Shown one piece after another: positions 3,423 to 58,254 of a DNA stretch of 64,000 bases. The stretch is from a virus. Lineage: Duplodnaviria > Heunggongvirae > Uroviricota > Caudoviricetes. The notes beneath the pieces were generated by a model that searched no databases, was not told where the DNA came from, and worked only from the letters and a program-made list of their open reading frames with translations. The DNA is taken from positions 1-64,000 of the IMG/VR virus record IMGVR_UViG_3300032288_002343; one strand, given 5' to 3'. Every line of letters starts with the position of its first letter. The stretch's first letter is position 1. Made by a program: the position numbers and the translations under genes.

Positions 3423-6013
3423 TATTTCTTAGCTTTAGGTTGTTTAGCTCTACCTTTTGCGTTTTCTTTAGCTATAGCTAAATCATTAGCTTGATTCTCT
3501 CTAGCCACTTGAAGCTTTTCTCTTTCAACAGCTATCTTCTCAGCAGCTAGTCTGTTTTTACTGTTTATATCAGCCATCTTTGCTTCAAACTCTCGACCAG
3601 CTTTAGATTGTTCTGCAGCTAACTTGCTGATTTCCAATACATCAGGAGTACCACTAGCATCTACATCACTTAATGGTCCCACTTTAGATTCAGCAGCTAT
3701 CAGAGCAATCTCTTTCTTATTAATCCTATCAAGCTCGTTTTGATAGTTTTCATTAGCCATTTCTTGATCTTTCATAGCTTGAGCCTGTTGTAATTGAGCA
3801 GCTGCAATTTCTCTTTGTTGTTCAATCTGTTGCTGTTGCTGTTGCATTTGCTGTTGTTGTATAGCGTCTTGCTTATCACGCAACTCTTTGAACACCTTCT
3901 TCATAGCTCTCATAGACTTAGTGCTATATAGCTCAATCACATCATATAGAGAACCACCATTCTGAATAACAGCTTGAGAAAGCTGACGAAGCTCATTAAA
4001 CATTTGTGTATCCTCAGGACGATTAGTCAAGAACACTTTTAAATCACGGAACTTAAGATCAGATCCATTCACTGTAACAAATGCAGCTTCTCCTTCATTA
4101 GTTATATAAGAGAGTGTAGACTGAGGCTTCTTAGATTCTACATATAATGCAGCATCTACAATTGCTTGATATAATTGACCTAATACATATTCATGAGCCA
4201 CAAATAAAGGTTCTGTTTGAGAATAGGATTGTTGAACTGCTGTATTAACACCTGTAGCAGACTCACTTGCTGATACAGATCCCATACGTTGTCTACTCAT
4301 ACCTATCAATTCCCAACACTCATTCTTCATCTGTTGAGCTAGCGTATAACGAGATTGTATCTCTTGTGTACGTGTAAGGTCAATATCTCTAAACTGGTTG
4401 AAGCTAGATGGGCTCTTCAGATTCTCAGGACTATCATCAATAAAGACAACACCCCTGTTACGTGCTTCCATTTCCCAGATGTCAAGAGCATCTTGGGCAT
4501 CACCATCCTTTGGAACAGGAATATGGCGAATGGATGTTAAATATACTTTACCCACTTCCTTCTCAAGGAGCTTGTAAAGCTGGTTCATACACACATTGTA
4601 TAATACCTGGAAAGGCTTCATTAAATCAACCAGAGATTTAGCCTCTGTATTTTTCACCTCAAATGTTGTACCAATGATAGGACAATAGTTAAGAAGCTTG
4701 AATGGTTTGATATGATAGATATCTGGACCCACCTTTATACCCTGATACCACTGGTTAATCCATCCCCACTCTAAAGATTGTTGTGTAGGAATAGTTCCAG
4801 ACTTATAGTTTTCATCAACTAGAACAGACTGTTCGTTTCCTAATTCATCTAGATAGATGAGCTTGCCAATCTTCTTTTTACTAATCCAATAGGAACGTAC
4901 CACTACATACTTATATCCAAAGGATGATACGTTAGAAGTGAGTCCTAAGAAATCTTTAAGACCATCATTGTTCTCCTTCATTTCACTCTCGATAATCATA
5001 CGGGTCTGAAGGACCAGTGGATCATACGTATCATACATCACTGAGTCAATTCCAGGAATTGCATCAGGATTGCCTAAGTTTGATTCACGGACATTAATTA
5101 GTCCATAGTCTTGGAGAGAACTTCTTAGATGGTCAATTTCTTCTTTTGTAAGATCAGGAATACTTTCAATAATTTCAGAAAGCTCCATCACTTGCACAGT
5201 ACCAGCAGCATAAGCTCCTTGTGCTCTACCTGTAGGATCACTAATCCATTTTCTATCAGGTGTAGTGAGGAACCACGTGTTCTTAGGGTTAGCCACTTCA
5301 ATATTAAATCCAAGCTTAGAGTTATCTTCATATATGTGATAGAACTCCCTTCCAGATATCAACATATCACGGAAGGCATCTTCTGATTTCTCTTTTAAAT
5401 TGAACTCAGCCTTCTGACAAGTGAGAACGTGGTTAGCCCATTTCTCAGCAACAGATGTATAACTATCTAATACATCCTTTACATCATCCATTGTCATCTG
5501 ATTAAGCTCTTCTTCATCTATCTCTTGTCCATTCAAAGCTGCTTGCTGTAAAATTTTCTGTCTAGCCTGAGAGATAACATATTCTTGAAGGATTCCAGTT
5601 TTAAACTCTAGCTCTTCTGCTTTACTATCATCATCAAATGCTTTAACACGAAATGTATCAGGACGTTTAGTTATTTCACCTACTAACTCATTTACTGGTG
5701 TAGTTATGATGGAATACATCTTTACATATGCAGGAAGCTGTAAATCAGCTGTAAGCATATCTGTAAAAGATCTTACTTGTGGCTCCTGATAAAAGTCTTC
5801 CATACGAAGAATACCTTTCATCAGGTCATAGTTTTTGACAAAGGTGTCACGATTCTTTACATACTCAGCATATGCCTTGTTTGCAAAGTAGTCCATGGTG
5901 TTCTTTATCCAACTCTCATCTTGCTTCTCCTTATCAGTCTTAAACTGATCAGGAAATATGTTTAGATAGGCATATCTAATTGTAGCATCCTTGGTATATC
6001 TAATGATAGCCAT
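3422..6013 (-). CDS. portal protein candidate with C-terminal poly-Q coiled coil
   Basis: 863 aa, start-stop coupled to TerL upstream and the SPFH gene downstream. Position between TerL and scaffold. C-terminus has QQQQMQQQQQQIEQQ from CAG/CAA repeats. Confidence 0.5.
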   Translation of the reverse strand: MAIIRYTKDATIRYAYLNIFPDQFKTDKEKQDESWIKNTMDYFANKAYAEYVKNRDTFVKNYDLMKGILRMEDFYQEPQVRSFTDMLTADLQLPAYVKMYSIITTPVNELVGEITKRPDTFRVKAFDDDSKAEELEFKTGILQEYVISQARQKILQQAALNGQEIDEEELNQMTMDDVKDVLDSYTSVAEKWANHVLTCQKAEFNLKEKSEDAFRDMLISGREFYHIYEDNSKLGFNIEVANPKNTWFLTTPDRKWISDPTGRAQGAYAAGTVQVMELSEIIESIPDLTKEEIDHLRSSLQDYGLINVRESNLGNPDAIPGIDSVMYDTYDPLVLQTRMIIESEMKENNDGLKDFLGLTSNVSSFGYKYVVVRSYWISKKKIGKLIYLDELGNEQSVLVDENYKSGTIPTQQSLEWGWINQWYQGIKVGPDIYHIKPFKLLNYCPIIGTTFEVKNTEAKSLVDLMKPFQVLYNVCMNQLYKLLEKEVGKVYLTSIRHIPVPKDGDAQDALDIWEMEARNRGVVFIDDSPENLKSPSSFNQFRDIDLTRTQEIQSRYTLAQQMKNECWELIGMSRQRMGSVSASESATGVNTAVQQSYSQTEPLFVAHEYVLGQLYQAIVDAALYVESKKPQSTLSYITNEGEAAFVTVNGSDLKFRDLKVFLTNRPEDTQMFNELRQLSQAVIQNGGSLYDVIELYSTKSMRAMKKVFKELRDKQDAIQQQQMQQQQQQIEQQREIAAAQLQQAQAMKDQEMANENYQNELDRINKKEIALIAAESKVGPLSDVDASGTPDVLEISKLAAEQSKAGREFEAKMADINSKNRLAAEKIAVEREKLQVARENQANDLAIAKENAKGRAKQPKAKK

Positions 6014-8040
6014 TATGTAAAAAGTTTACTTTTTTTCCTTTTATTAAATAACCCACGAGATTCTGTGAACAATACGTTCTTCTTGTTGGGTTTGAATATC
6101 GCATTCACTCTTGGATCTGCTGATCCTCCCACTTTACCAAGCACAGGGTCCATCTTAAGAGCCTGAGCAATAGCAAGTTCTGCAGCAACAATACGGTCAA
6201 AGTTACCCTGATCGTTATACTGAATTATCTCTTCCAGCAGAACAGGATCAAATATCTTTGACACACCTGTCACCTCTTTTATTATATTACCATCTTCATC
6301 CTTCTCCTGATATACAACACTCTCCATATATTTCTTTAGACAGTTATGTAGATAGTCTCTTATCTTTTCTGCAGAACGGTGTACACCATAATCACGTTTT
6401 ACTGTTGTTCCAGGAACCACTTCCTTAAGCCATTCAGGTTGTTTCTCAAGGTAGTGTGCATCTCCTTTAGCTTTCATATATTCTATGAATGAGATGTCAT
6501 CATTCTCACACAGTGTTCTAGCGTTATAATACTTGATAAGCAGTCTAGCTTGTTCTTCCCAAGTTTCTTTCTTATCAGGTCTTGCACAATACGAAGCTAC
6601 GAACATATCCTGATATTTCTCTCCTGTTATGTCATGCATTCTTTTATAAATGTAAACACTACCAAGAGATGTAGAGTATGCTGCTTGTCCTTGTCTATAT
6701 GGGTCCACTCCTGCTACATACAGTCCATATGGAGGATTCTCAATAGGAAATTCGTATATAATTACAGGAGCATCTTTTAGATCGCTATTTTTAAGAGGGA
6801 AGTTGGTTATTGGCTGTTTGTCTGTGAACTCATGAGATATATTCTCACCATTATGAAACAAGATAACAGGAGTACCTGTACGCCCCTGATTAAGCAGTCT
6901 ACCCTTTTGACGTTTAGCTGCTTCTATATCAAATATGTTTGTATCCTCATTTAAAAAGATATCATCCACTTCTAATGGATAATACATTTTCTCTTTAAGA
7001 TAGGCCACCCTATCTCCTGCCTTCTTAAGGCGATCTAGGTTACTTTCTGTTATTTGTTTAGCTTTCTCCTCATTGCTCACCAACATCTTAATGTTATGAA
7101 GATCGCTTCCTTCAGGCTGTTCCAAAAATTTACCCAGCGTACTTTCTTCCTTAGCTTCCATTCTATATTTATACGAAATAAACAAGCCATGAACACGTTT
7201 GTCATCTTTCTCATTGTTGTAGCTTAGGAAGTTAAAGTTGTCTGCATCAAACATCAAGCTTTTTGCATCCATGAATCGTTTCATATCACCACCAGTACCT
7301 GTAAGAATGGGAGAACAACCCCATCCATATGGTGTGGTGAAACCTGGAACAGCTGCCTGAAAACCTCTGAGGAAATTACCTTTACCAATCTCATCAATAA
7401 TTAGTTTACGTGGTTTAGTACCTGCAATAGCCTCTTCATTGTTTCCCTCATCCAAGTTACGGATAAGTATCTGAGAGAACGGTATACGTTCTCCTGATTT
7501 GGTCTTAATACCTAGGGTGACTTGGTTTTTCCAGTTATCCTCTACTCTCTGCCATCTCCATGCTTCAGGCAAAAAGTTGAGGCCCTTGTCCAGCTTATCT
7601 GTGATCAGCTTTATATCGGGGGCATTCAACCCAGCGATCACATTCTGGGAATTCTCATCAAATGTTGCGCCCCACCCTATGTAAGAAGCCTCTAAAACAG
7701 ACTTGGCAAAACGTCGTATACCTAGTATTACCAAGCCCTTTTTTTCTTGTTGTGCCCTGTCTATCTCACTTGTTACCAACCATTCATTGTCACGCAACAG
7801 GGGATTAGCATATTTCTGGTAGATGCGTCCTCTTTCATCAACAACATCCACCTCTGTGTGCCACATGTTCAGGTGCCAGTAAAGGAATGGGTTGATATAC
7901 ATCCCGTTCATTAAGCACCCGTTCAGACATATTTCTCTATGAAAATCAAAAAACGGCTTATACTCTGCTGACTCACGATCAGGCAGACGCCCCTGGTTAA
8001 TAAACCAGTCTTTGTAGTCTATGCTTACAAGCTCATTCAT
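6013..8040 (-). CDS. terL: terminase large subunit
   Basis: 675 aa. Deviant Walker A LGIRRFAKS, Walker B KLIIDEIGK, C-terminal nuclease-like acidic motif VAGVDPYRQG. Gene position. Confidence 0.7.
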   Translation of the reverse strand: MNELVSIDYKDWFINQGRLPDRESAEYKPFFDFHREICLNGCLMNGMYINPFLYWHLNMWHTEVDVVDERGRIYQKYANPLLRDNEWLVTSEIDRAQQEKKGLVILGIRRFAKSVLEASYIGWGATFDENSQNVIAGLNAPDIKLITDKLDKGLNFLPEAWRWQRVEDNWKNQVTLGIKTKSGERIPFSQILIRNLDEGNNEEAIAGTKPRKLIIDEIGKGNFLRGFQAAVPGFTTPYGWGCSPILTGTGGDMKRFMDAKSLMFDADNFNFLSYNNEKDDKRVHGLFISYKYRMEAKEESTLGKFLEQPEGSDLHNIKMLVSNEEKAKQITESNLDRLKKAGDRVAYLKEKMYYPLEVDDIFLNEDTNIFDIEAAKRQKGRLLNQGRTGTPVILFHNGENISHEFTDKQPITNFPLKNSDLKDAPVIIYEFPIENPPYGLYVAGVDPYRQGQAAYSTSLGSVYIYKRMHDITGEKYQDMFVASYCARPDKKETWEEQARLLIKYYNARTLCENDDISFIEYMKAKGDAHYLEKQPEWLKEVVPGTTVKRDYGVHRSAEKIRDYLHNCLKKYMESVVYQEKDEDGNIIKEVTGVSKIFDPVLLEEIIQYNDQGNFDRIVAAELAIAQALKMDPVLGKVGGSADPRVNAIFKPNKKNVLFTESRGLFNKRKKSKLFT

Positions 8041-9065: not shown

Positions 9066-9348
9066 CTTTCTTAATTTGCTCTTCTTGTTCTTGCGTAACC
9101 ACTGCTAGCCACTTTTTTAAAGGACATGCGCAGGACAAACATTTGGTTTTGGCAGACAGAGTGCACCCACACTTGGCACAATGAGCATCAAGACGGATAG
9201 TTTTATAGTTTTTTATATTAGCAGAATGGTGTTCACATCCCTTACAGATGCGCATCCTTTCTCTACTCGTCTCGTTTATCGCTGTCTTTAGTTTCTCTGG
9301 GGGAAGAAGGTTGTTCCTCCATCCCTCGTAAATCTGTGAGAATATCAT
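9055..9348 (-). CDS. Cys-rich zinc-ribbon protein
   Basis: 97 aa with CKGCEHH...CAKCGC...CLSCAC cysteine clusters. Confidence 0.4.
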   Translation of the reverse strand: MIFSQIYEGWRNNLLPPEKLKTAINETSRERMRICKGCEHHSANIKNYKTIRLDAHCAKCGCTLSAKTKCLSCACPLKKWLAVVTQEQEEQIKKDGK

Positions 9349-9727
9349 GCATCTTTGGTTTTAAATCTCGTATGTTATCTAGAGCTATCTGTACCTTAAG
9401 CTCTAATGATTTTCTCTTTTGCTCCGTCAAATTTTCGTCTTTGAGCATCTTCTCAAAAAGCGCCTTTTGGCTTTGGAATTTGGCCATGTGCTTGGCAGCT
9501 TTCCCTTCATTGAAATAAAACTTTCCAAACCCACTGATTTCCAAACTCTTATGTTTACCCAGTGCTAAATGAGCTTCCTGAAACTGGTGATTCACCACAG
9601 CCTCAATGGTCTTCTCACTCACCATCATTTTTGGAGCTAGCTTTCTAATGATCCAGTCCTTAACAGACATGCTCATTGGCTTATTGTCCGTGAACAAGTC
9701 TGATTTCAAGGGTGACATCATTTTCAA
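9263..9727 (-). CDS. hypothetical protein
   Basis: 154 aa ORF. Overlaps the 3' part of the neighbouring ORF in another frame, so its start is uncertain. Confidence 0.35.
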   Translation of the reverse strand: MKMMSPLKSDLFTDNKPMSMSVKDWIIRKLAPKMMVSEKTIEAVVNHQFQEAHLALGKHKSLEISGFGKFYFNEGKAAKHMAKFQSQKALFEKMLKDENLTEQKRKSLELKVQIALDNIRDLKPKMHDILTDLRGMEEQPSSPRETKDSDKRDE

Positions 9728-10028
9728 AGTTTAATAATATTTTAGGATTCACCTTCACCTTTCCTCCATCCTTCACCAGCACCCCCATCTTCTTCAGCCT
9801 AGAGATGATGTTATTTATAGAGGCATTGGTGGTGCCATACTTCTCACAAAACTCCTGCCTAATGTTAGCATAGGATATATTCCCTCTAACAGCTGCAAAA
9901 GCCATAAGCTGTATTTCCCTCTGTGTCAACCCAAGATCATTCACTGCTGATAGGATGATATAATACCTCTCTGCTAGCAGATAGTCACTATCTTCCTTTT
10001 TCCTCAGCTTTTGTAATATGACCTTCAT
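9681..10028 (-). CDS. winged-helix (MarR-like) transcriptional regulator; first gene of the minus-strand structural block
   Basis: The ORF track gives a TTG start at 10046. The first ATG is at 10028 (MKVILQKL...). Helix-turn-helix-like segment LTQREIQLMAFAAVRGNISYANIRQEF...IISRLKKMGVL. A canonical promoter lies immediately upstream. Confidence 0.5.
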   Translation of the reverse strand: MKVILQKLRKKEDSDYLLAERYYIILSAVNDLGLTQREIQLMAFAAVRGNISYANIRQEFCEKYGTTNASINNIISRLKKMGVLVKDGGKVKVNPKILLNFENDVTLEIRLVHGQ

Positions 10029-10043
10029 AATAAATAGTTGATA

Positions 10044-10075
10044 CAAAGATAGGAATAGTTTCTAACACCGTCAAA
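10044..10075 (-). promoter_or_regulatory. Bacteroidota-type sigma-A promoter (TTTG-N20-TATCTTTG) driving the minus-strand head/packaging block
   Basis: Reverse complement reads tatTTGacggtgttagaaactattccTATCTTTGtatcaactatttattATG. The -33 TTTG and -7 TAnnTTTG elements are spaced 20 nt apart. Confidence 0.5.
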
Positions 10076-10289
10076 TACAATCTTTTATCTTATTGCTATA
10101 TTATGTTCTTTTTTCGACCAGATACACTATCCCCATTCTATTATCAGTGGTTATGGATGCTTCCATTTACCAGAATCAACCACCAATTGACTATCCATCT
10201 GTAGGGAGTAGATACATCCCTACCCACCCAACCGCCCCAAAGTTACAACATATACATACCAACTTCCAAATTTATTTTTTAATGGTTTA

Positions 10290-10554
10290 AAAACACACCC
10301 CTATTTGTACCCACAGTATAACTATCTCCAAATATGTAAACCCATACCTTGACAAACACCCCCTGGTAGTAAACCCATAGCTTTACTCCCCCTCCTTTAG
10401 AGCCCAACTATTTATGCCCCCTAGGTTTCACGTGGAACCAAAAATCCCCCCTGTGCATGGGAGGGGAGGGTACTTCCAACCAAAACCCCTCCACATCTCG
10501 CGGTGGTTGGGGATACCCCCCATTTAATGAAACATCGTAACCTAAAACAATTTT
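10290..10554. repeat. C-rich divergent intergenic region with about 7 spaced CCCC(C)T motifs and G/C-tract inverted repeats; candidate origin or regulatory hub
   Basis: acaCCCCTa, acaCCCCCTg, actCCCCCTc, tgCCCCCTa, atCCCCCCTg, aaCCCCTCc, taCCCCCCa occur about every 25-40 bp on the plus strand. Direct repeat GTAAACCCATA appears twice. Inverted GGGAGGGG/CCCCTCC. Confidence 0.45.
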
Positions 10555-10938
10555 ATGGAACTCAAAGGCAGACAAGTTGGAAAGATTAAGTTAATTTCCA
10601 CAGGCAACAAGTACAATGTTGAAGAAGGTCACCCATTTTATGGCCAAACTTACAACTTGTACCAATTTAATGGTATTGCATTCACAGTTAACTCAAATGA
10701 TGAGTTTGTGAAATTGCGTGACACTAACAAACTGTTCAGTGTTGATTTCGTTGAAGGAACTCGTGAGCGTGAGATTGATGGTCAATTAGTTAAGGTGCCT
10801 TCATTACAGTTAGTTAGTAGCACTAGCATTGATTTCGAAGTTAATATGGCTAAGACTGAATCTGTGCTTAACAAGATTTACCGTGATGCTGAGACCACAG
10901 AAGTTAGTGAAGACTTATTCGCTGAACTAGTGAAATGA
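10555..10938 (+). CDS. hypothetical protein (first plus-strand early gene)
   Basis: 127 aa ORF followed by two tandem intrinsic terminators. Confidence 0.5.
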   Translation: MELKGRQVGKIKLISTGNKYNVEEGHPFYGQTYNLYQFNGIAFTVNSNDEFVKLRDTNKLFSVDFVEGTREREIDGQLVKVPSLQLVSSTSIDFEVNMAKTESVLNKIYRDAETTEVSEDLFAELVK

Positions 10939-11337: not shown

Positions 11338-11417
11338 AGTTAGGTGGCGAAATAGAGCAAACGCACGTATTATGTACGATTCCTATTGGAATACAGGTTC
11401 GAGTCCTGTCCTGACTA
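11338..11417 (+). tRNA. tRNA-like element (canonical T-arm and acceptor stem; D and anticodon arms degenerate)
   Basis: AGTTAGG...ACAGG-TTCGAGT-CCTGT-CCTGACT-A. The 7-bp acceptor stem includes one G-U pair. The GGTTCGAGTCC T-loop is canonical. The D-arm and anticodon arm fold poorly by eye; the best anticodon-loop reading is UAU. Could be a degenerate tRNA or the 3' tRNA fragment of an att core. Confidence 0.3.
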
Positions 11418-11654
11418 CAATAACAGTGAATGTATACATTTAATGTGGGGTGGACACAACCACAGCTGTTATTTGTTGCATATGACACACAACAGAATAT
11501 ATATGCTGAGGCAACATTAGGCTATATATTCGCTTTGTTAAGGTGTTCTATCTGTTCTACTTCAAAGAATGGAGGCTTTTTATAGTTGAAGCGCTCAATA
11601 AACTATTATTTTTTCCTTAAACCCTTAATAATCAACAATTTAAAACAGTTTGCT

Positions 11655-12083
11655 ATGAAAAGAAATGAAATTCTTGAGTATTTAACTCCTTTATTTATAG
11701 AACAATTGGACAAGATAACCAACACGTATAAAGTTATTGGTATATCAGGAGACTTTGCCAGAAAGAATGGTATAGGCTCATTAACATATGACGAAAGTCC
11801 TATGTGGCTGCAGTTTAGAGGGGCAAACAGTGATAGTAATGCTGTTCTCTTTAAATGTTCACTGAGTAATGTAGGATTTGAGATACCATTAAGTAGTGAT
11901 GATATAGACACATTGTTATGGTCTAGTGGTGGGCACAGTGTAGTGTATGATTATTTCAAAAGGATCAAATATCTCCATCTGAAGGAACATCATCCTACAG
12001 TTTGGGAAGAACAGCATCCTTCCAATATAGCAAGAGTTGAGGCTTTCCTAGACTCAGCAGGCTATACAGAGCAAGACAGATAA
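11655..12083 (+). CDS. hypothetical early protein
   Basis: The ORF track starts at TTG 11586; the first ATG is at 11655. A conserved 22-nt leader motif lies just upstream. Confidence 0.5.
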   Translation: MKRNEILEYLTPLFIEQLDKITNTYKVIGISGDFARKNGIGSLTYDESPMWLQFRGANSDSNAVLFKCSLSNVGFEIPLSSDDIDTLLWSSGGHSVVYDYFKRIKYLHLKEHHPTVWEEQHPSNIARVEAFLDSAGYTEQDR

Positions 12084-53892: not shown

Positions 53893-56800
53893 ATGCCAAA
53901 TAGCTATACATTCTTCAAGCCAGAAATAAGACAGTGGTTCATTGACAATGTTCCCACCAGTAAGAGAATCTTAGATGTAGGCCCAGGACAGGGGACCTAT
54001 TCCAACCTACTTAGAGACCTTGGATATAGGATGGATGCAGTGGAAGTGTGGGCTCCCTACATAGAGCAATTTGATTTGCGATCTAAGTATGATAATGTCT
54101 ATAACGCCAACATCTTAGACTTTGATTTAACAGATTACGACTTTATTATACTAGGTGATGTTCTAGAGCATATTAGCACAGAGAACGCTCAGAACCTAAT
54201 TGACACTATAGTAAACTCTCTAAAAGATTGCCTAGTGGCAATTCCCTACATGATGGAGCAGGACGGGGAAGAGTATGGAAATGTTTATGAGACCCACCTT
54301 CAAGCAGACCTCACTCCTGATGTAATGAGGCAGCGCTATAAGATTTTAGAACCCATCTATAAGAATCAGTATTATGGTTATTACATCAATAAGCGTATTA
54401 GAATAAAGCGTGGGTTTGTAATGTACGCTACAGAAAGCTATTTAGATACTGTACAGGCAGCTGTAGATTCAATTCGTAAATACAGCTCTCTTAACATTTT
54501 TGTATATATGGTAAACTCCACTGCAAGAGTGAGAGGTGCTGTAACTATTGAATGGCCTGTTGCTATAAAACCTACAGAAAAGAAATCGTTTATTGACCGT
54601 GGAGATAGTAATGTCTATAAACTATTAATCCAGCGTCCTCAGATTGTAAGAGATGCACTACGTTATATGGAAACTGTGGCTTATGTAGATAGCGATAGTG
54701 TTGCCACTCCTTATATCGAACGTATTTTTGACATGTTCCCTGAGAAATCCTCCATCCCTTATTTTGTAGAGGGTATTTATGAATGGATGCTTGCTAATGG
54801 TAGAGGGGGAGCTGATTCTTATGATGATCTATCTACCACTCTTGAGCATCCAGCCTGTGAGCTGTTTGGTGTTAACCAGAAGGTTAGAAAGTTATATAGA
54901 CAAACTGGATATTTTGTAGCAGGCCAGTGGTGTGACAAGTTTCTAGCAGAGTGGAGATGGATGTGTATGCATCCTGAGGTATTTAAAAACCCTCAATACT
55001 ATGCACCCTATCATGAAGAAACTATTGTTAATACCCTCCTATGGAAGCATAACTTCCATGAGGGTTTGCCATACATCTATATAAACGGTGGGCTCGATAG
55101 AGTGAATAAAGCATACGGTGGTGAGGCCAAGTATATTCCTGGAATTCGTAACAATTTAGGACACTTCTTTAGACTACCTGATTCAAGACAAGACATCCTC
55201 TTCTTTCATGGAGAGAAAGATCCTGTTAGAATGAAAGAAATATCTGATAGAATAGACTTCTATAATAAGTACAAGATTGACCCCACAAAAAACTGGGGAG
55301 ATATTATTTCTCATAGGATCATCTCTCATTTTACAACAAAGAAGATTGATCCTATGGATATTTTCCATTTTGATACAAGTGCTATTGTTCCAAAAAAGAA
55401 AGGAAAACTTCTTGCTGTAGGAAGTGCTATGGTGTTTGCTAGACAGAATGACTATGTGTGGGGAACAGGTGTAATATCAGACAGAGAGGTGAATATAGAG
55501 GAACATCCTAGAAAGATATATGCTGTAAGAGGACCTATTACTAGAAAAGAATTACTTCGTGCAGGATTAGAATGTCCTGAGGTGTATGGTGATCCTGCTC
55601 TTTTATTTCCACGTATATACCAACCTAATGTCGATAAGAAGTACAAGTATGGAATAATTCCACACTATTCTGAATATCAGAACGCTGATGTTCTTAATGC
55701 TTTGTACAAGCTAGAAGATATGGAAGTGAAAGTGATTAATATCACTACAGGAATAGAACAATTTGTAGATGAGGTGAATGAGTGTGAATACATCATCTCT
55801 TCTAGCTTACATGGTATAATTGTAGCAGATGCATACAGAATACCTAATGTTCGTGTGCGCATGTCTAATGATATTGTAGGGGGAGATTTCAAGTATATGG
55901 ACTACTTTGCATCTGTAAAACGTGAATACCAACACAAACCTATTTGGATTACAGAGAACACTACACTAGAAGATATTGAAAAGTTTCCATATGAATTAGG
56001 AGACATCAGTTGTGCTGATGACCTATTAGCTAATGCTCCTTGGAAAGATCCTGAGTGTGCACTGTTTACTCCTACTAAAATTTTGTTTGTAGCACCGCAT
56101 CTATCTACAGGTGGAATGCCTGCCTTCCTATTGAAAAGAATAGATGCACTTCTTGCACACTCTGATTTTGAGGTGCATGTTGCTGAGTTTAGTTGCTATA
56201 GTAATGAGTTTGTAGTGCAGCGTAATAAAATTAAAGCAACACTAGGTAAAAGATTCCATGAGGTGGGAGCTGACAAGATGAATCTACTAAACATAATCCA
56301 TGATAACAACATAGATGTAGTGCATGTTGATGAGATTATGGAAGGGTTTGACAGCTTTAATCGTGTACCCACACCTGTATTAAGAGCTCTATATGACTCT
56401 AGAAGAACATGGCGTATTGTTGAGACATGTCACAATGTATGGTTCAATCCTGATAAAGACAAAATATTCCATCCTGATGGATATGCATTCTGTACTCCTT
56501 ATCATGAAATCACATTTGGTAACATGCCTTCTGAGAAGAAGGTGATTCAGTTTCCAATTGAGAATAGAGTGCCAATCTATCAGATGAAACGTAGAGCTAA
56601 AGAACAATTAGGATTTGATCTTAACAAAAAACATGTGCTCAATGTAGGACTATGGACTCCTGGTAAAAACCAAATAGAGGGTTTAGAGATAGCTAGACAA
56701 CTCCCTGACATTCAGTTTCATTTTGTAGGCAATCAAGCTCCTAACTTTGAAGACTACTGGGGACCAGCGATGAAAGATCTTCCTCCTAATGTAAAGATTT

Positions 56801-58254
56801 GGGGAGAGCGCTCTGATACAGAAACATTCATGCATGCTGCAGATATGTTCATGTTCAACTCAACGTGGGAATGTAATCCTCTTGTAGTGAGAGAGGCTAT
56901 ATCTTATGGTCTACCTGTACTCACTCGTGATCTACCACAATATGTAGGAATGTTTGATGATTATATTGTGAAATTAGATGATAGTAGAAAGGTTTGGCAA
57001 GTTAGAGAAATACTGAACTCAGTTGAACCAATAAAAATCCCAAATGATACGAACGAACGTTTCTCTAAAGATCATGAAGTTTTCTATCGTCACTTATTAA
57101 ACTTACCACACATTAAACAGAATAAGGTGTCAGATGTAAAGGTGAATACACATTTCATAGGACGCCCTACAGTAGAGGTTTTAGGAGAAAGTGATAAGAC
57201 TTATACAGTTAAGTTTATTGATGATGGAGGATTTATAATACATCAATCAAAGATTAAAGCTAATGAATGGACAGCTGCCAATCGTGCCTATTATACTGAT
57301 TGGAAAATTGAGGTGTATGAAGAAGATGAGTTGATATATGAACATCAGTTTGATGTAAAAGGTAAGCGTGTATATATTGCTTTCGATAGTGCTTCCTTAG
57401 GAGACAATATTGCATGGATTCCATATGTATTAGAGTTTAAGAGAAAACATAACTGTCATGTGATAGTGTCTACCTTCAAGAACTTCTTATTCAAGGATGT
57501 ATATCCTGAGCTAGAGTTTATCAATCCAGGAGAACAAGCACCGAACATATATGCTATGTATAAATTGGGCTGGTTCTATAATTCAAACTTAGAGCCTGTT
57601 GAACCCCATAAAATTCCTCTTCAAAAGGCTGCCACTAACATTCTAGGACTAGAATTCAACGAACTCAATCCTAGAATAAAGCATAATCTTGCTAAGAATG
57701 TATATGGTAAGTATGTAACAATTGCTACTAATTCAACAGCTCAGTGTAAGTTCTGGACTAAAGAAGGCTGGCAGGGACTGATTAACTATCTAGTTGAAAG
57801 AGGATATAAGGTGGTGAATGTATCTATGGAGAATAATCCATTTGACAACTGTGAGCAGTTGAGAGACAAGTCCATGGAAAACACTATGAACACTATTCAC
57901 CACAGTGAATTCTTCATAGGTTTATCTAGTGGATTGAGTTGGTTAGCGTGGGGACTTGGTAAACAGGTTGTTATGATTGCTAACTTCTCAGATGCCTATC
58001 ATGAATTTACGAGCAGATGTACAAGGATTGTAAAAGAAAATGTGTGCCATGGTTGTTGGAACACTCACAAGTTTGATAAGTCAGACTGGTACTGGTGTCC
58101 TTTGCAGAAAGGAACTAACAGAGAATTTGAATGTCACACATCCATCAATGCTAATGATGTAATTGAGAAGGTAGAATTTATTATTGAAAACATGGGCAAA
58201 CACAATCTAGATACTCATTCTAGATGTGATTCATGTGATAAAAACATACTATGA
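53893..58254 (+). CDS. 1453-aa multidomain glycan-synthesis enzyme: SAM methyltransferase + GT-A (DxD) + pyruvyl-transferase-like + GT4 + GT9 heptosyltransferase-like
   Basis: MTase motif I ILDVGPGQG and IILGDVLEH. GT-A DxD AYVDSDS. SSLHGIIVADAYRIPNV (PS-pyruvyl-transferase-like). GT4 N-terminal KILFVAPHLSTGG and C-terminal ECNPLVVREAISYGLPVLT. GT9-like KRVYIAFDSASLGDNIAWIPYVLEFKRKH and KYVTIATNSTAQCKFW. Confidence 0.75.
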   Translation: MPNSYTFFKPEIRQWFIDNVPTSKRILDVGPGQGTYSNLLRDLGYRMDAVEVWAPYIEQFDLRSKYDNVYNANILDFDLTDYDFIILGDVLEHISTENAQNLIDTIVNSLKDCLVAIPYMMEQDGEEYGNVYETHLQADLTPDVMRQRYKILEPIYKNQYYGYYINKRIRIKRGFVMYATESYLDTVQAAVDSIRKYSSLNIFVYMVNSTARVRGAVTIEWPVAIKPTEKKSFIDRGDSNVYKLLIQRPQIVRDALRYMETVAYVDSDSVATPYIERIFDMFPEKSSIPYFVEGIYEWMLANGRGGADSYDDLSTTLEHPACELFGVNQKVRKLYRQTGYFVAGQWCDKFLAEWRWMCMHPEVFKNPQYYAPYHEETIVNTLLWKHNFHEGLPYIYINGGLDRVNKAYGGEAKYIPGIRNNLGHFFRLPDSRQDILFFHGEKDPVRMKEISDRIDFYNKYKIDPTKNWGDIISHRIISHFTTKKIDPMDIFHFDTSAIVPKKKGKLLAVGSAMVFARQNDYVWGTGVISDREVNIEEHPRKIYAVRGPITRKELLRAGLECPEVYGDPALLFPRIYQPNVDKKYKYGIIPHYSEYQNADVLNALYKLEDMEVKVINITTGIEQFVDEVNECEYIISSSLHGIIVADAYRIPNVRVRMSNDIVGGDFKYMDYFASVKREYQHKPIWITENTTLEDIEKFPYELGDISCADDLLANAPWKDPECALFTPTKILFVAPHLSTGGMPAFLLKRIDALLAHSDFEVHVAEFSCYSNEFVVQRNKIKATLGKRFHEVGADKMNLLNIIHDNNIDVVHVDEIMEGFDSFNRVPTPVLRALYDSRRTWRIVETCHNVWFNPDKDKIFHPDGYAFCTPYHEITFGNMPSEKKVIQFPIENRVPIYQMKRRAKEQLGFDLNKKHVLNVGLWTPGKNQIEGLEIARQLPDIQFHFVGNQAPNFEDYWGPAMKDLPPNVKIWGERSDTETFMHAADMFMFNSTWECNPLVVREAISYGLPVLTRDLPQYVGMFDDYIVKLDDSRKVWQVREILNSVEPIKIPNDTNERFSKDHEVFYRHLLNLPHIKQNKVSDVKVNTHFIGRPTVEVLGESDKTYTVKFIDDGGFIIHQSKIKANEWTAANRAYYTDWKIEVYEEDELIYEHQFDVKGKRVYIAFDSASLGDNIAWIPYVLEFKRKHNCHVIVSTFKNFLFKDVYPELEFINPGEQAPNIYAMYKLGWFYNSNLEPVEPHKIPLQKAATNILGLEFNELNPRIKHNLAKNVYGKYVTIATNSTAQCKFWTKEGWQGLINYLVERGYKVVNVSMENNPFDNCEQLRDKSMENTMNTIHHSEFFIGLSSGLSWLAWGLGKQVVMIANFSDAYHEFTSRCTRIVKENVCHGCWNTHKFDKSDWYWCPLQKGTNREFECHTSINANDVIEKVEFIIENMGKHNLDTHSRCDSCDKNIL

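Follow-up and report, generated by a model that had tools for sequence, protein, structure and literature searches.

What does a series of C homopolymers, spaced at regular steps along one strand, do at the point where the two main gene blocks of a phage diverge? The question is raised by positions 10290-10554 of IMG/VR virus record IMGVR_UViG_3300032288_002343, of which the first 64,000 nucleotides were analysed (hereafter the window). The source is an uncultured phage distantly related to Crassvirales. Its large terminase, encoded at 6013..8040 on the minus strand, is 41% identical to the counterpart in Leptolyngbya phage Lbo-JY46 and about 32% identical to those of Cellulophaga phages phi17:2 and phi4:1; gut crAss-like phages gave weaker matches. 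The C-tract array sits in a 526-nt junction that separates a leftward block (up to 10028), encoding a P22-like portal, the terminase, small genes, an HU-like protein, and a 115-aa winged-helix protein, from a rightward block (from 10555), encoding a DNA polymerase, a DnaB-like helicase, a primase, and a UvsX-like recombinase. The array region is best read as belonging to a known kind, a phage divergent-promoter control region; its unusual part is the cis-element design, in which strand-biased homopolymer tracts recur at a fixed 30-bp period. The array may be a phased protein-binding region on duplex DNA that controls divergent early and middle/late promoters, a proposal that we favour tentatively and hold with somewhat less than even confidence.

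The C-run array and its conservation

An earlier note on this DNA, made from the sequence alone, had described seven C-tracts on one strand at intervals of roughly 25-40 bp. Runs of at least four C are found on the plus strand at 10298-10301, 10359-10363, 10388-10392, 10417-10421, 10446-10451, 10486-10489, and 10516-10521 (runs 0 to 6), and their start-to-start intervals are 61, 29, 29, 29, 40, and 30 nt. The description is borne out for the runs, the strand, and five of the intervals, and fails for the first, as run 0 (C4) is an outlier 61 nt ahead of the next run. Runs 1, 2, and 3 are each C5 followed by T, and run 4 is C6T; the four copies of CCCCCT start at 10359, 10388, 10417, and 10447, in steps of 29, 29, and 30. 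The spacer of unit 3, between runs 2 and 3 (10393..10416, plus strand), is without a palindrome, has a DNA fold of 0 kcal/mol, and contains CAACTATTTAT. This 11-mer (10405-10415) is the reverse complement of 10030-10040, with which it forms a perfect inverted repeat, and it reproduces the sequence around the translation start of the winged-helix gene (CAACTATTTATTATG, minus strand).

Matches to CCCCC number 28 on both strands of the 64 kb, and 7 of these 28 lie within 10359-10521, all on the plus strand. The largest cluster of runs of five or more C in any 170 nt is the array itself, with five; first-order Markov simulations gave one or two in 99 of 100 cases and three in the other. Composition-preserving shuffles of 10290-10554 reached five C5 runs in 1 of 5000 and seven C4 runs in 2 of 5000. 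The array in the window is not a chance product. The strong C/G strand asymmetry that had been pointed out earlier was also recovered, as a GC skew of -0.55 over 10200-10399. Tandem Repeats Finder reported no tandem repeat in the array because the homopolymer alone is common to the units, and no second locus with C5 clusters, or with the motifs M1, M2, or M3 described below, was found anywhere in the 64-kb window.

A scan of IMG/VR with the terminase returned 498 related stretches, of which the best 80 loci were retained (82-96% terminase identity). Junctions were compared across the 67 distinct sequences among these best 80 of 498, and promoters were counted in 58 unique relatives. C runs were found on the same strand in most of the 67 distinct junctions, with flanking DNA 65-85% identical. 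Loss of the tracts in relatives had been named by the earlier note as grounds for refutation, and the array withstood this test; conservation of the C runs across relatives indicates that the array is under selection.

Successive runs of five or more C show a sharp spacing peak at 28-33 nt (mode, 29-31 nt) and secondary peaks near 70 and at 98-100 nt, which arise by addition of the basic steps. Relatives differ in spacer sequence, in run length (5-8), and in how many regular units they have (2-5). A logo of more than 100 distinct units carries information at the C run only, with a weak A bias at positions -5 to -2, T or A at +1, and less than 0.3 bit at spacer positions. Constant spacing combined with free spacer sequence suggests a geometric constraint and has the look of phased protein sites on duplex DNA. 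Measured centre to centre, the distances of the other runs from the last one fall into groups at about 30, 70, 98-100, 128-130, and 156-160 nt, with a best sub-period of 9.8 bp (resultant length R = 0.51), and the single 40-nt step stays in register with the 30-nt steps. These values are suggestive of sites that share roughly one face of the DNA, provided that the helix repeat is close to 10 bp, a value that wrapping or overwinding of the DNA would give.

Judged by sequence searches, the array element is specific to this clade. No DNA match to the junction was found in INPHARED (50,697 phage records), and the homologous junctions of the cultured phages Lbo-JY46 and phi17:2 are without the array. 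The core of M3, searched against 185,579 species genomes, gave three chance-like matches and none in Bacteroidota, and host mimicry was rejected. When the whole collection was scanned for CCCCCT arrays, the hits were for the most part coding or tandem repeats of no relation to this one, alongside members of the clade. Among other loci seen were C4-5 tracts every 8-12 nt in unrelated 55-60-kb phages (L083 and about 30 similar loci) and C5-TGTAAAATTTTCA-C5 units in an unrelated 215-kb viral contig (L155).

Palindromes between the C runs and the winged-helix protein

The direct repeat GTAAACCCATA, noted before, was confirmed and is part of a longer unit of 18 nt, whose two copies (10336-10353 and 10369-10386) lie 33 nt apart. 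The repeat search defined the two copies as 18-bp pseudo-palindromes, M1a (GTAAACCCATACCTTGAC, 10336..10353) and M1b (GTAAACCCATAGCTTTAC, 10369..10386, 33 bp after M1a), with C run 1 in the spacer between them. The family consensus, GTAAAGCTATAGCTTGAC, has a conserved A3/G16 asymmetry. This mismatch at the third dyad position is the commonest state of M1 (19 of 38 variants), and it is therefore sequence, not pairing, that is conserved. The M1-M1 start distance among relatives is exactly 33 bp in 26 of 28 cases and is unaffected by the content of the 15-bp spacer, which may be free of runs or contain one of C or of G (L058). The pair is located about 300-650 nt from the winged-helix gene. A further palindrome of CACGTG type, M2 (GTTTCACGTGGAAC, 10425..10438), is single-copy and unique in the window and occurs in many relatives as GTTYCACGTGRAAC. 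The DNA folds of M1a, M1b, and M2 in the window are 0, -1.8, and -1.6 kcal/mol. Palindromes whose asymmetry is conserved, at an exact 33-bp distance, are best read as sites for dimeric proteins on duplex DNA.

The candidate binder of these palindromes is the winged-helix protein, whose gene (9681..10028, minus strand) is the first of the leftward block. Its Pfam matches are all sub-threshold (Phage_rep_O, MCM_C, HTH_Mga, Penicillinase_R, and Cdc6_C). The AlphaFold model (pLDDT, 77.6) has a winged helix-turn-helix topology with one helix before the core, and fold searches gave weak matches to the N-terminal domain of T4 MotA and to MarR-family regulators. The protein has more than 1000 homologous clusters, some of them labelled MarR family by JGI. 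M1 has the features of a MarR-type operator pair, namely a pseudo-palindrome of 16-20 bp (here 18 bp) in two copies at a fixed distance beside the divergent gene of a small, putative winged-helix regulator. It differs from known operators of this type in its interspersed C runs, which are not a known feature of them, and in the protein, which has 115 aa, a single helix before the core, and Pfam matches below the gathering score. M1 variants are as diverse inside a single genome as they are from genome to genome, which ruled out an analysis of co-variation between the winged-helix protein and M1. M1 and M2 appear likelier than the C runs to be sites for this protein.

Predicted promoters beside the array

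The array had been placed by the earlier note between the promoter of the minus-strand block and the first early gene, and this position was confirmed, with predicted leftward promoters on one side and the first plus-strand gene on the other. Promoters were sought with the pattern of the Bacteroidetes primary sigma factor (-33 TTTG and -7 TAnnTTTG, with a spacer of 19-21 nt). The proximal promoter, P1 (10044..10075, minus strand, TTTG-N20-TATCTTTG), lies directly upstream of the winged-helix gene and is matched in 51 of 58 relatives. The distal one, P2 (10238..10270, minus strand, TTTG-N21-TAACTTTG), has both boxes in 53 of 58 relatives and the 21-nt spacer in 47, with 49 different spacer sequences. 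Boxes that are kept while the spacer varies are the signature expected of a working promoter. A sigma-70-type promoter was also considered and rejected: TTGACA occurs within M1 but has no -10 partner at 16-18 nt, and a plus-strand scan of the array was empty. In four more distant relatives (L058, L065, L072, and L074), P2 is about 390 nt from the winged-helix gene, compared with 210 nt, and, before the conserved module described below, the junctions contain inverted repeats that are of other kinds and far more numerous, with centres of 10-17 nt.

Between P2 and the array is a 26-bp A/T-rich tract, ATTTATTTTTTAATGGTTTAAAAACA (10271..10296), of which the part TTCCAAATTTATTTTT is conserved. This conserved island beside the array corresponds to the -33 box of P2 and its upstream flank, and the tract could be a P2 upstream element or an easily melted segment. 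The predicted transcript start of P2 is G-rich (10218..10238, minus strand): it reads GGGG-CGGTT-GGG-T-GGG-TA-GGG, a canonical G-quadruplex (G4) motif on the non-template strand. The 24 nt to the left of the P2 -7 box contain 11-16 C on the plus strand in 53 of 53 relatives having P2, and distant relatives have C7-TAAAT-C7 at this position (G7-ATTTA-G7 on the minus strand).

A rigid module upstream of the early genes

The part of the array closest to the early genes has a rigid layout, in which C6, 40 nt, CCCC(TCC), 30 nt, and C5-6 follow one another around GGGAGGGGAGGnTACTTCCA. It opens with C run 4 (10446..10451), which in relatives precedes the C4 run by 40-41 nt. M3 (TGTGCATGGGAGGGGAGGGTACTTCCA, 10452..10478, plus strand) is the most conserved block of the junction, has invariant columns, and is unique in the window; its region is 93.9-97.5% identical to loci with flanks that are about 68-77% identical. 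The inverted repeat formed by GGGAGGGG (10459-10466) and CCCCTCC (10486-10492), also described earlier, is present, and its arms are complementary. The second arm is C run 5 (10486..10492, plus strand), which is complementary to the GGAGGGG of M3 and stands 30 nt ahead of the last run in all relatives examined. That last run, run 6 (10516-10521), belongs to M4 (GGTTGGGG-ATA-CCCCCC, 10505..10521, plus strand), which has the form GGTTGGGG-NNN-CCCCCC in relatives. The fold of M4 (-4.5 kcal/mol) is no better than that of shuffles, and the variation of its G arm (GGGG, GGAG, and GGGA) is not compensated in the C run, which is pure C throughout.

From M3 to the end of M4, the distance is 54-57 nt in all 13 relatives measured, and in every relative the early start codon follows M3, M4, and the three C runs at a distance of 30-45 nt. 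The module is retained even where the first gene downstream is of a different family. In the window, this gene (10555..10938, plus strand) encodes a protein of 127 aa with no assigned function, for which profile searches gave no family match; relatives have other genes at this place, with at least three sequence types among L001-L080 and the upstream module conserved throughout. The module looks like a recombination boundary for the exchange of early genes. On the minus strand, 10446-10465 has a terminator-like hairpin facing leftward (CCCTCC-N8-GGGGGG, then ATTTTT), and in the L017/L019 group the hairpin at this site is a perfect C6-N9-G6 stem followed by T5-6. Such a hairpin would block antisense transcription entering the array.

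No rightward host-type promoter was found in any of the 58 relatives, and a non-host promoter must therefore be looked for in the region itself. In phi14:2, the single model studied, the early genes are transcribed by an injected virion polymerase with a preference for single-stranded DNA, and its transcripts have no shared upstream motif, leaving the early promoters undefined (bioRxiv 10.1101/2020.03.07.982082). The anatomy of the junction fits the phi14:2 scheme, with host-type promoters leftward and, rightward, a rigid module but no host-type promoter, and leads us to the control-region reading favoured here. In a rival reading, the array would itself be a promoter or loading platform for an injected virion RNA polymerase of crAss type, with the C runs and palindromes read as sequence or as extruded structure. 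Consistent with such a platform are the position of the rigid module before the early start whatever the downstream gene, the template preference of the phi14:2 enzyme, and the enrichment of palindromes in the junctions. Much of the evidence points the other way: the stems show no compensatory change, the asymmetry of M1 is conserved, the units of the window fold weakly as DNA (0 to -1.8 kcal/mol), the array is absent from phi17:2 and Lbo-JY46, and the virion polymerase gene is not in this window. In addition, the motifs are single-copy in 64 kb that hold about 34 kb of early genes; a dispersed promoter motif was rejected, as M1, M2, M3, and the C5 clusters are each confined to a single locus. 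We regard the platform as unlikely. A more specific form, in which the phased C runs and the invariant GGGAGGGGAGGnTACTTCCA would be the recognition or loading platform of the polymerase and the upstream C-run/palindrome units would tune or gate it, is slightly less likely still.

Coliphage N4, whose early promoters are DNA hairpins read by its virion RNA polymerase, offers a close comparison for a promoter read as structure. Shared with these promoters are palindromes upstream of early genes and a lineage that injects an RNA polymerase with a preference for single strands. The junction differs in that it has no short, stable, conserved DNA hairpin of the N4 type (5-7-bp stem and 3-nt loop), shows no compensation, and folds weakly as DNA, and the polymerase is of another family.

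RNA, coding, and non-B DNA

The C runs are on the sense strand of the early genes, and the array might be a long early 5' leader, in which C-rich patches would load Rho or titrate a C-binding protein. Strong strand bias, the skew of -0.55 in C-rich, G-poor DNA of 40% GC, and the abundant early non-coding RNAs that phi14:2 produces from intergenic regions agree with such a leader, as does the folding of the spacers, which is somewhat better than that of shuffles (-2.5 versus -1.4 kcal/mol) and better on the plus than on the minus strand (-2.5 versus -1.66 kcal/mol). However, a promoter that would transcribe the leader could not be identified upstream of the array, and signs of a structured RNA were not obtained. 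Rfam searches at permissive E-values gave no match near threshold in the array. The 270-nt region had no extra stability over shuffles on either strand (z = -0.30 on the plus and +0.40 on the minus strand), and RNAalifold found no consensus structure in 27 sequences of the 3' module including M3 (six pairs, -1.6 kcal/mol). Inverted repeats are about twofold above shuffles in the junctions, but single mismatches in their stems (7 G·T and 15 A·C) occur in the same proportion as in shuffles, with neither G·U enrichment nor another signal of strand-specific folding. A structured RNA, whether of an Rfam family or a new one, was rejected, there being no covariance match, stability, consensus fold, or compensation.

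The conserved mismatch of M1, and its 33-bp distance irrespective of content, fit duplex-DNA recognition better than an RNA leader, and in one relative (L058) the run in the M1 spacer is of G, not of C. A leader of this kind is quite unlikely. Rut sites such as that of lambda tR1 (rutA-boxB-rutB) are C-rich and G-poor and load Rho. The array resembles lambda tR1 in its C-rich, G-poor patches on the sense strand, split by small hairpins; it differs in that the patches are homopolymers at a 30-nt period and in that the evidence favours recognition as duplex DNA. A coding origin of the array, as a Pro-Pro repeat from CCC CCN or a small open reading frame, was rejected as well, since the period is 29-31 and run lengths, which range from 5 to 8 among close relatives, shift the frame. 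The minus-strand open reading frames 10279-10407 and 10408-10575, and the ATG at 10412, are not kept in relatives.

The earlier suggestion that the tracts could form an i-motif or G-quadruplex did not hold up across the array. A minus-strand G4 or plus-strand i-motif that uses the spacers as hairpin loops could appeal to the four or more like-stranded tracts that are usually present and to the inverted repeats enriched in the spacers. The loops would be 23-26 nt long, though, and the spacers of the window fold at 0 to -1.8 kcal/mol as DNA. The number of regular tracts is 2-5, a single tract can drop out with its flanks retained, and the constant 30-nt spacing of spacers that lack hairpins would be left unexplained. 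Four tracts of at least three G, with loops of 1-7 and up to 12 nt, occur only at 10218-10238 on the minus strand, the start of the P2 transcript. For the array itself, non-B DNA is highly improbable.

Replication origin and genome terminus

The array had also been called iteron-like, a description that is apt for the constant same-strand spacing of 29-31 nt and misses in that the units share a homopolymer and not an iteron of 17-22 bp; three or more direct repeats of 17-22 bp in common were not found. The best sub-period of the spacing is 9.8 bp, against 10.5 for helical phasing. If the junction were a replication origin, the C runs, M1, or both would serve an initiator, for example the winged-helix protein, as iterons, with 10271-10296 as the unwinding element. 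Direct repeats at a constant spacing of roughly three turns beside a 26-bp A/T-rich tract are in line with this, as are the location at the junction of divergent gene blocks and the sub-threshold matches of the winged-helix protein to Phage_rep_O, MCM_C, Cdc6_C, and PHROG replication-initiation families. There is also a precedent in prototypic crAssphage, for which the predicted origin is where the forward-strand block begins (PMC10983915). No independent sign of an origin was obtained. GC skew changes sign at the junction but also near 44, 54, and 58 kb, wherever gene orientation switches, and the skew minimum is therefore no independent origin signal. No DnaA box with one mismatch or fewer was found in 10000-10600. 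The conserved core is homopolymer only, the A/T tract doubles as the upstream flank of P2, and related cultured phages are without the array at the same junction. All initiator-like matches, the Rep_O-like one among them, are sub-threshold, and the fold search favours transcription factors. Compared with the iterons of the lambda origin and theta plasmids, the array has in common same-strand repeats, a fixed multi-turn spacing, an adjacent A/T tract, and a neighbouring winged-helix gene; it differs in a core of 5-8 C instead of 17-22 bp, in a copy number of 2-5, and in having no supported initiator or origin signal. An origin is thus improbable, with about the same small chance that we would give to a polymerase platform.

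Contig ends raise the matter of a genome terminus or packaging recognition site, such as a T7-like terminal repeat or sites for the terminase small subunit. Fourteen of 80 related IMG/VR contigs end within this region of about 600 nt, several at homologous points; about 2 kb separate the junction from the gene of the large terminase, and the GenBank record of Lbo-JY46 opens at the same junction. In phages that inject an RNA polymerase, early genes are expected near the entering end. Yet the contig ends are at or beside C/G homopolymers (those of L005, L016, L030, L034, L047, L069, L070, and L072 were seen there) that vary in length among near-identical relatives, which is the usual signature of an assembly break. 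In a 113.9-kb contig starting here, the start sequence occurs only once, and near-complete contigs (about 110-118 kb) open at many different places. Breaks in assembly at homopolymers of variable length are the probable cause of the contig ends in the junction; a terminus or packaging site is very unlikely.

A proposed control region between divergent transcription units

For the reading put forward at the outset, a phased protein-binding region that controls divergent promoters, the following scheme can be proposed. The control region would lie between divergent transcription units in a phage with a host of Bacteroidota type. P2, of host type, would fire leftward into the block of winged-helix, HU-like, terminase, and capsid genes. 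As the early gene is without a host-type promoter, early rightward transcription would start from a non-host-type promoter within 10271-10554, for which the rigid M3/M4 module is the best candidate. The M1 pair and M2 would be operators, probably for the adjacent winged-helix protein, separated by G·C tracts about every 30 bp (cumulatively about 30, 70, 100, 130, and 160 bp). Tracts and palindromes together may hold several DNA-bound proteins in register, in one higher-order nucleoprotein complex made up of winged-helix dimers on M1 and M2 and possibly the HU/IHF-like neighbour. This last is the HU-like protein of the leftward block (9263..9727; Bac_DNA_binding, E = 1.5e-7), whose gene follows that of the winged-helix protein. 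The complex might bring about the change from early (rightward) to middle/late (leftward) transcription, or it might autoregulate P2. In either case, the C runs could be direct protein contact sites or stiff spacers that keep the complex in register.

A similar arrangement is known from phi29, in which the switch region between the divergent A2c/A2b and A3 promoters has p4 sites and a nucleoprotein complex of the histone-like protein p6; the sites are inverted repeats with A-tracts, and both promoter sets use host RNA polymerase. The two regions are alike in their length of a few hundred bp between divergent early and late promoters, in their regularly spaced protein sites (here putative), in the presence of a small phage-encoded DNA-binding regulator and a histone-like protein, and in the logic of a temporal switch. 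They differ in that there is no known sequence or protein homology between them, in the C homopolymers found here, and in that only the leftward promoters are of host type here.

Several observations weigh against such a scheme. The period of about 30 bp amounts to 9.8-10 bp per turn, not 10.5, and the sites would spiral on relaxed B-DNA. The conserved element is 5-8 C, which is short for a specific protein site, and several lineages have lost the individual run at 10446. The presence of C on the sense strand of the early genes (with one exception) would also suit a single-strand or RNA-level reader. As for the proposed regulator, fold matches of the winged-helix protein are weak (best E = 5.7e-3, none with E <= 0.001), and the protein is present in relatives with weak arrays as well, so it is not tied to the C runs.

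Other features of the window

In the early block, 11338-11417 (plus strand) matches the Rfam tRNA model with 38.1 bits (gathering score, 29), and ARAGORN made no call there. Downstream of it, 11420-11661 contains non-coding islands that are about 90-95% identical to those of L074-L080, whose terminase identity is only about 83%; they look like a further conserved non-coding element or a small RNA. Farther on, 53893-58254 (plus strand) encodes a 1453-aa protein with a methyltransferase, a pyruvyl-transferase, and two glycosyltransferase domains, and the gene is flanked by more glycosyltransferases, in what appears to be a large phage sugar-modification cluster.

Implications for crAss-like phages

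The clade is very abundant in freshwater, and the region is short, sharply defined, deeply conserved, and non-coding. Its discrete elements (the M1 pair, M2, M3/M4, and the phased C runs) are open to in vitro study without culture of the phage. Length-variable C runs probably also account for the breaking of assemblies of this clade at the junction. As regards the early promoters of crAss-like phages, this region must contain both one such promoter and its switch. If the invariant GGGAGGGGAGGnTACTTCCA and the phased C runs do serve as a polymerase platform, it would be the first sequence-defined early promoter for the crAss-type virion polymerase family.

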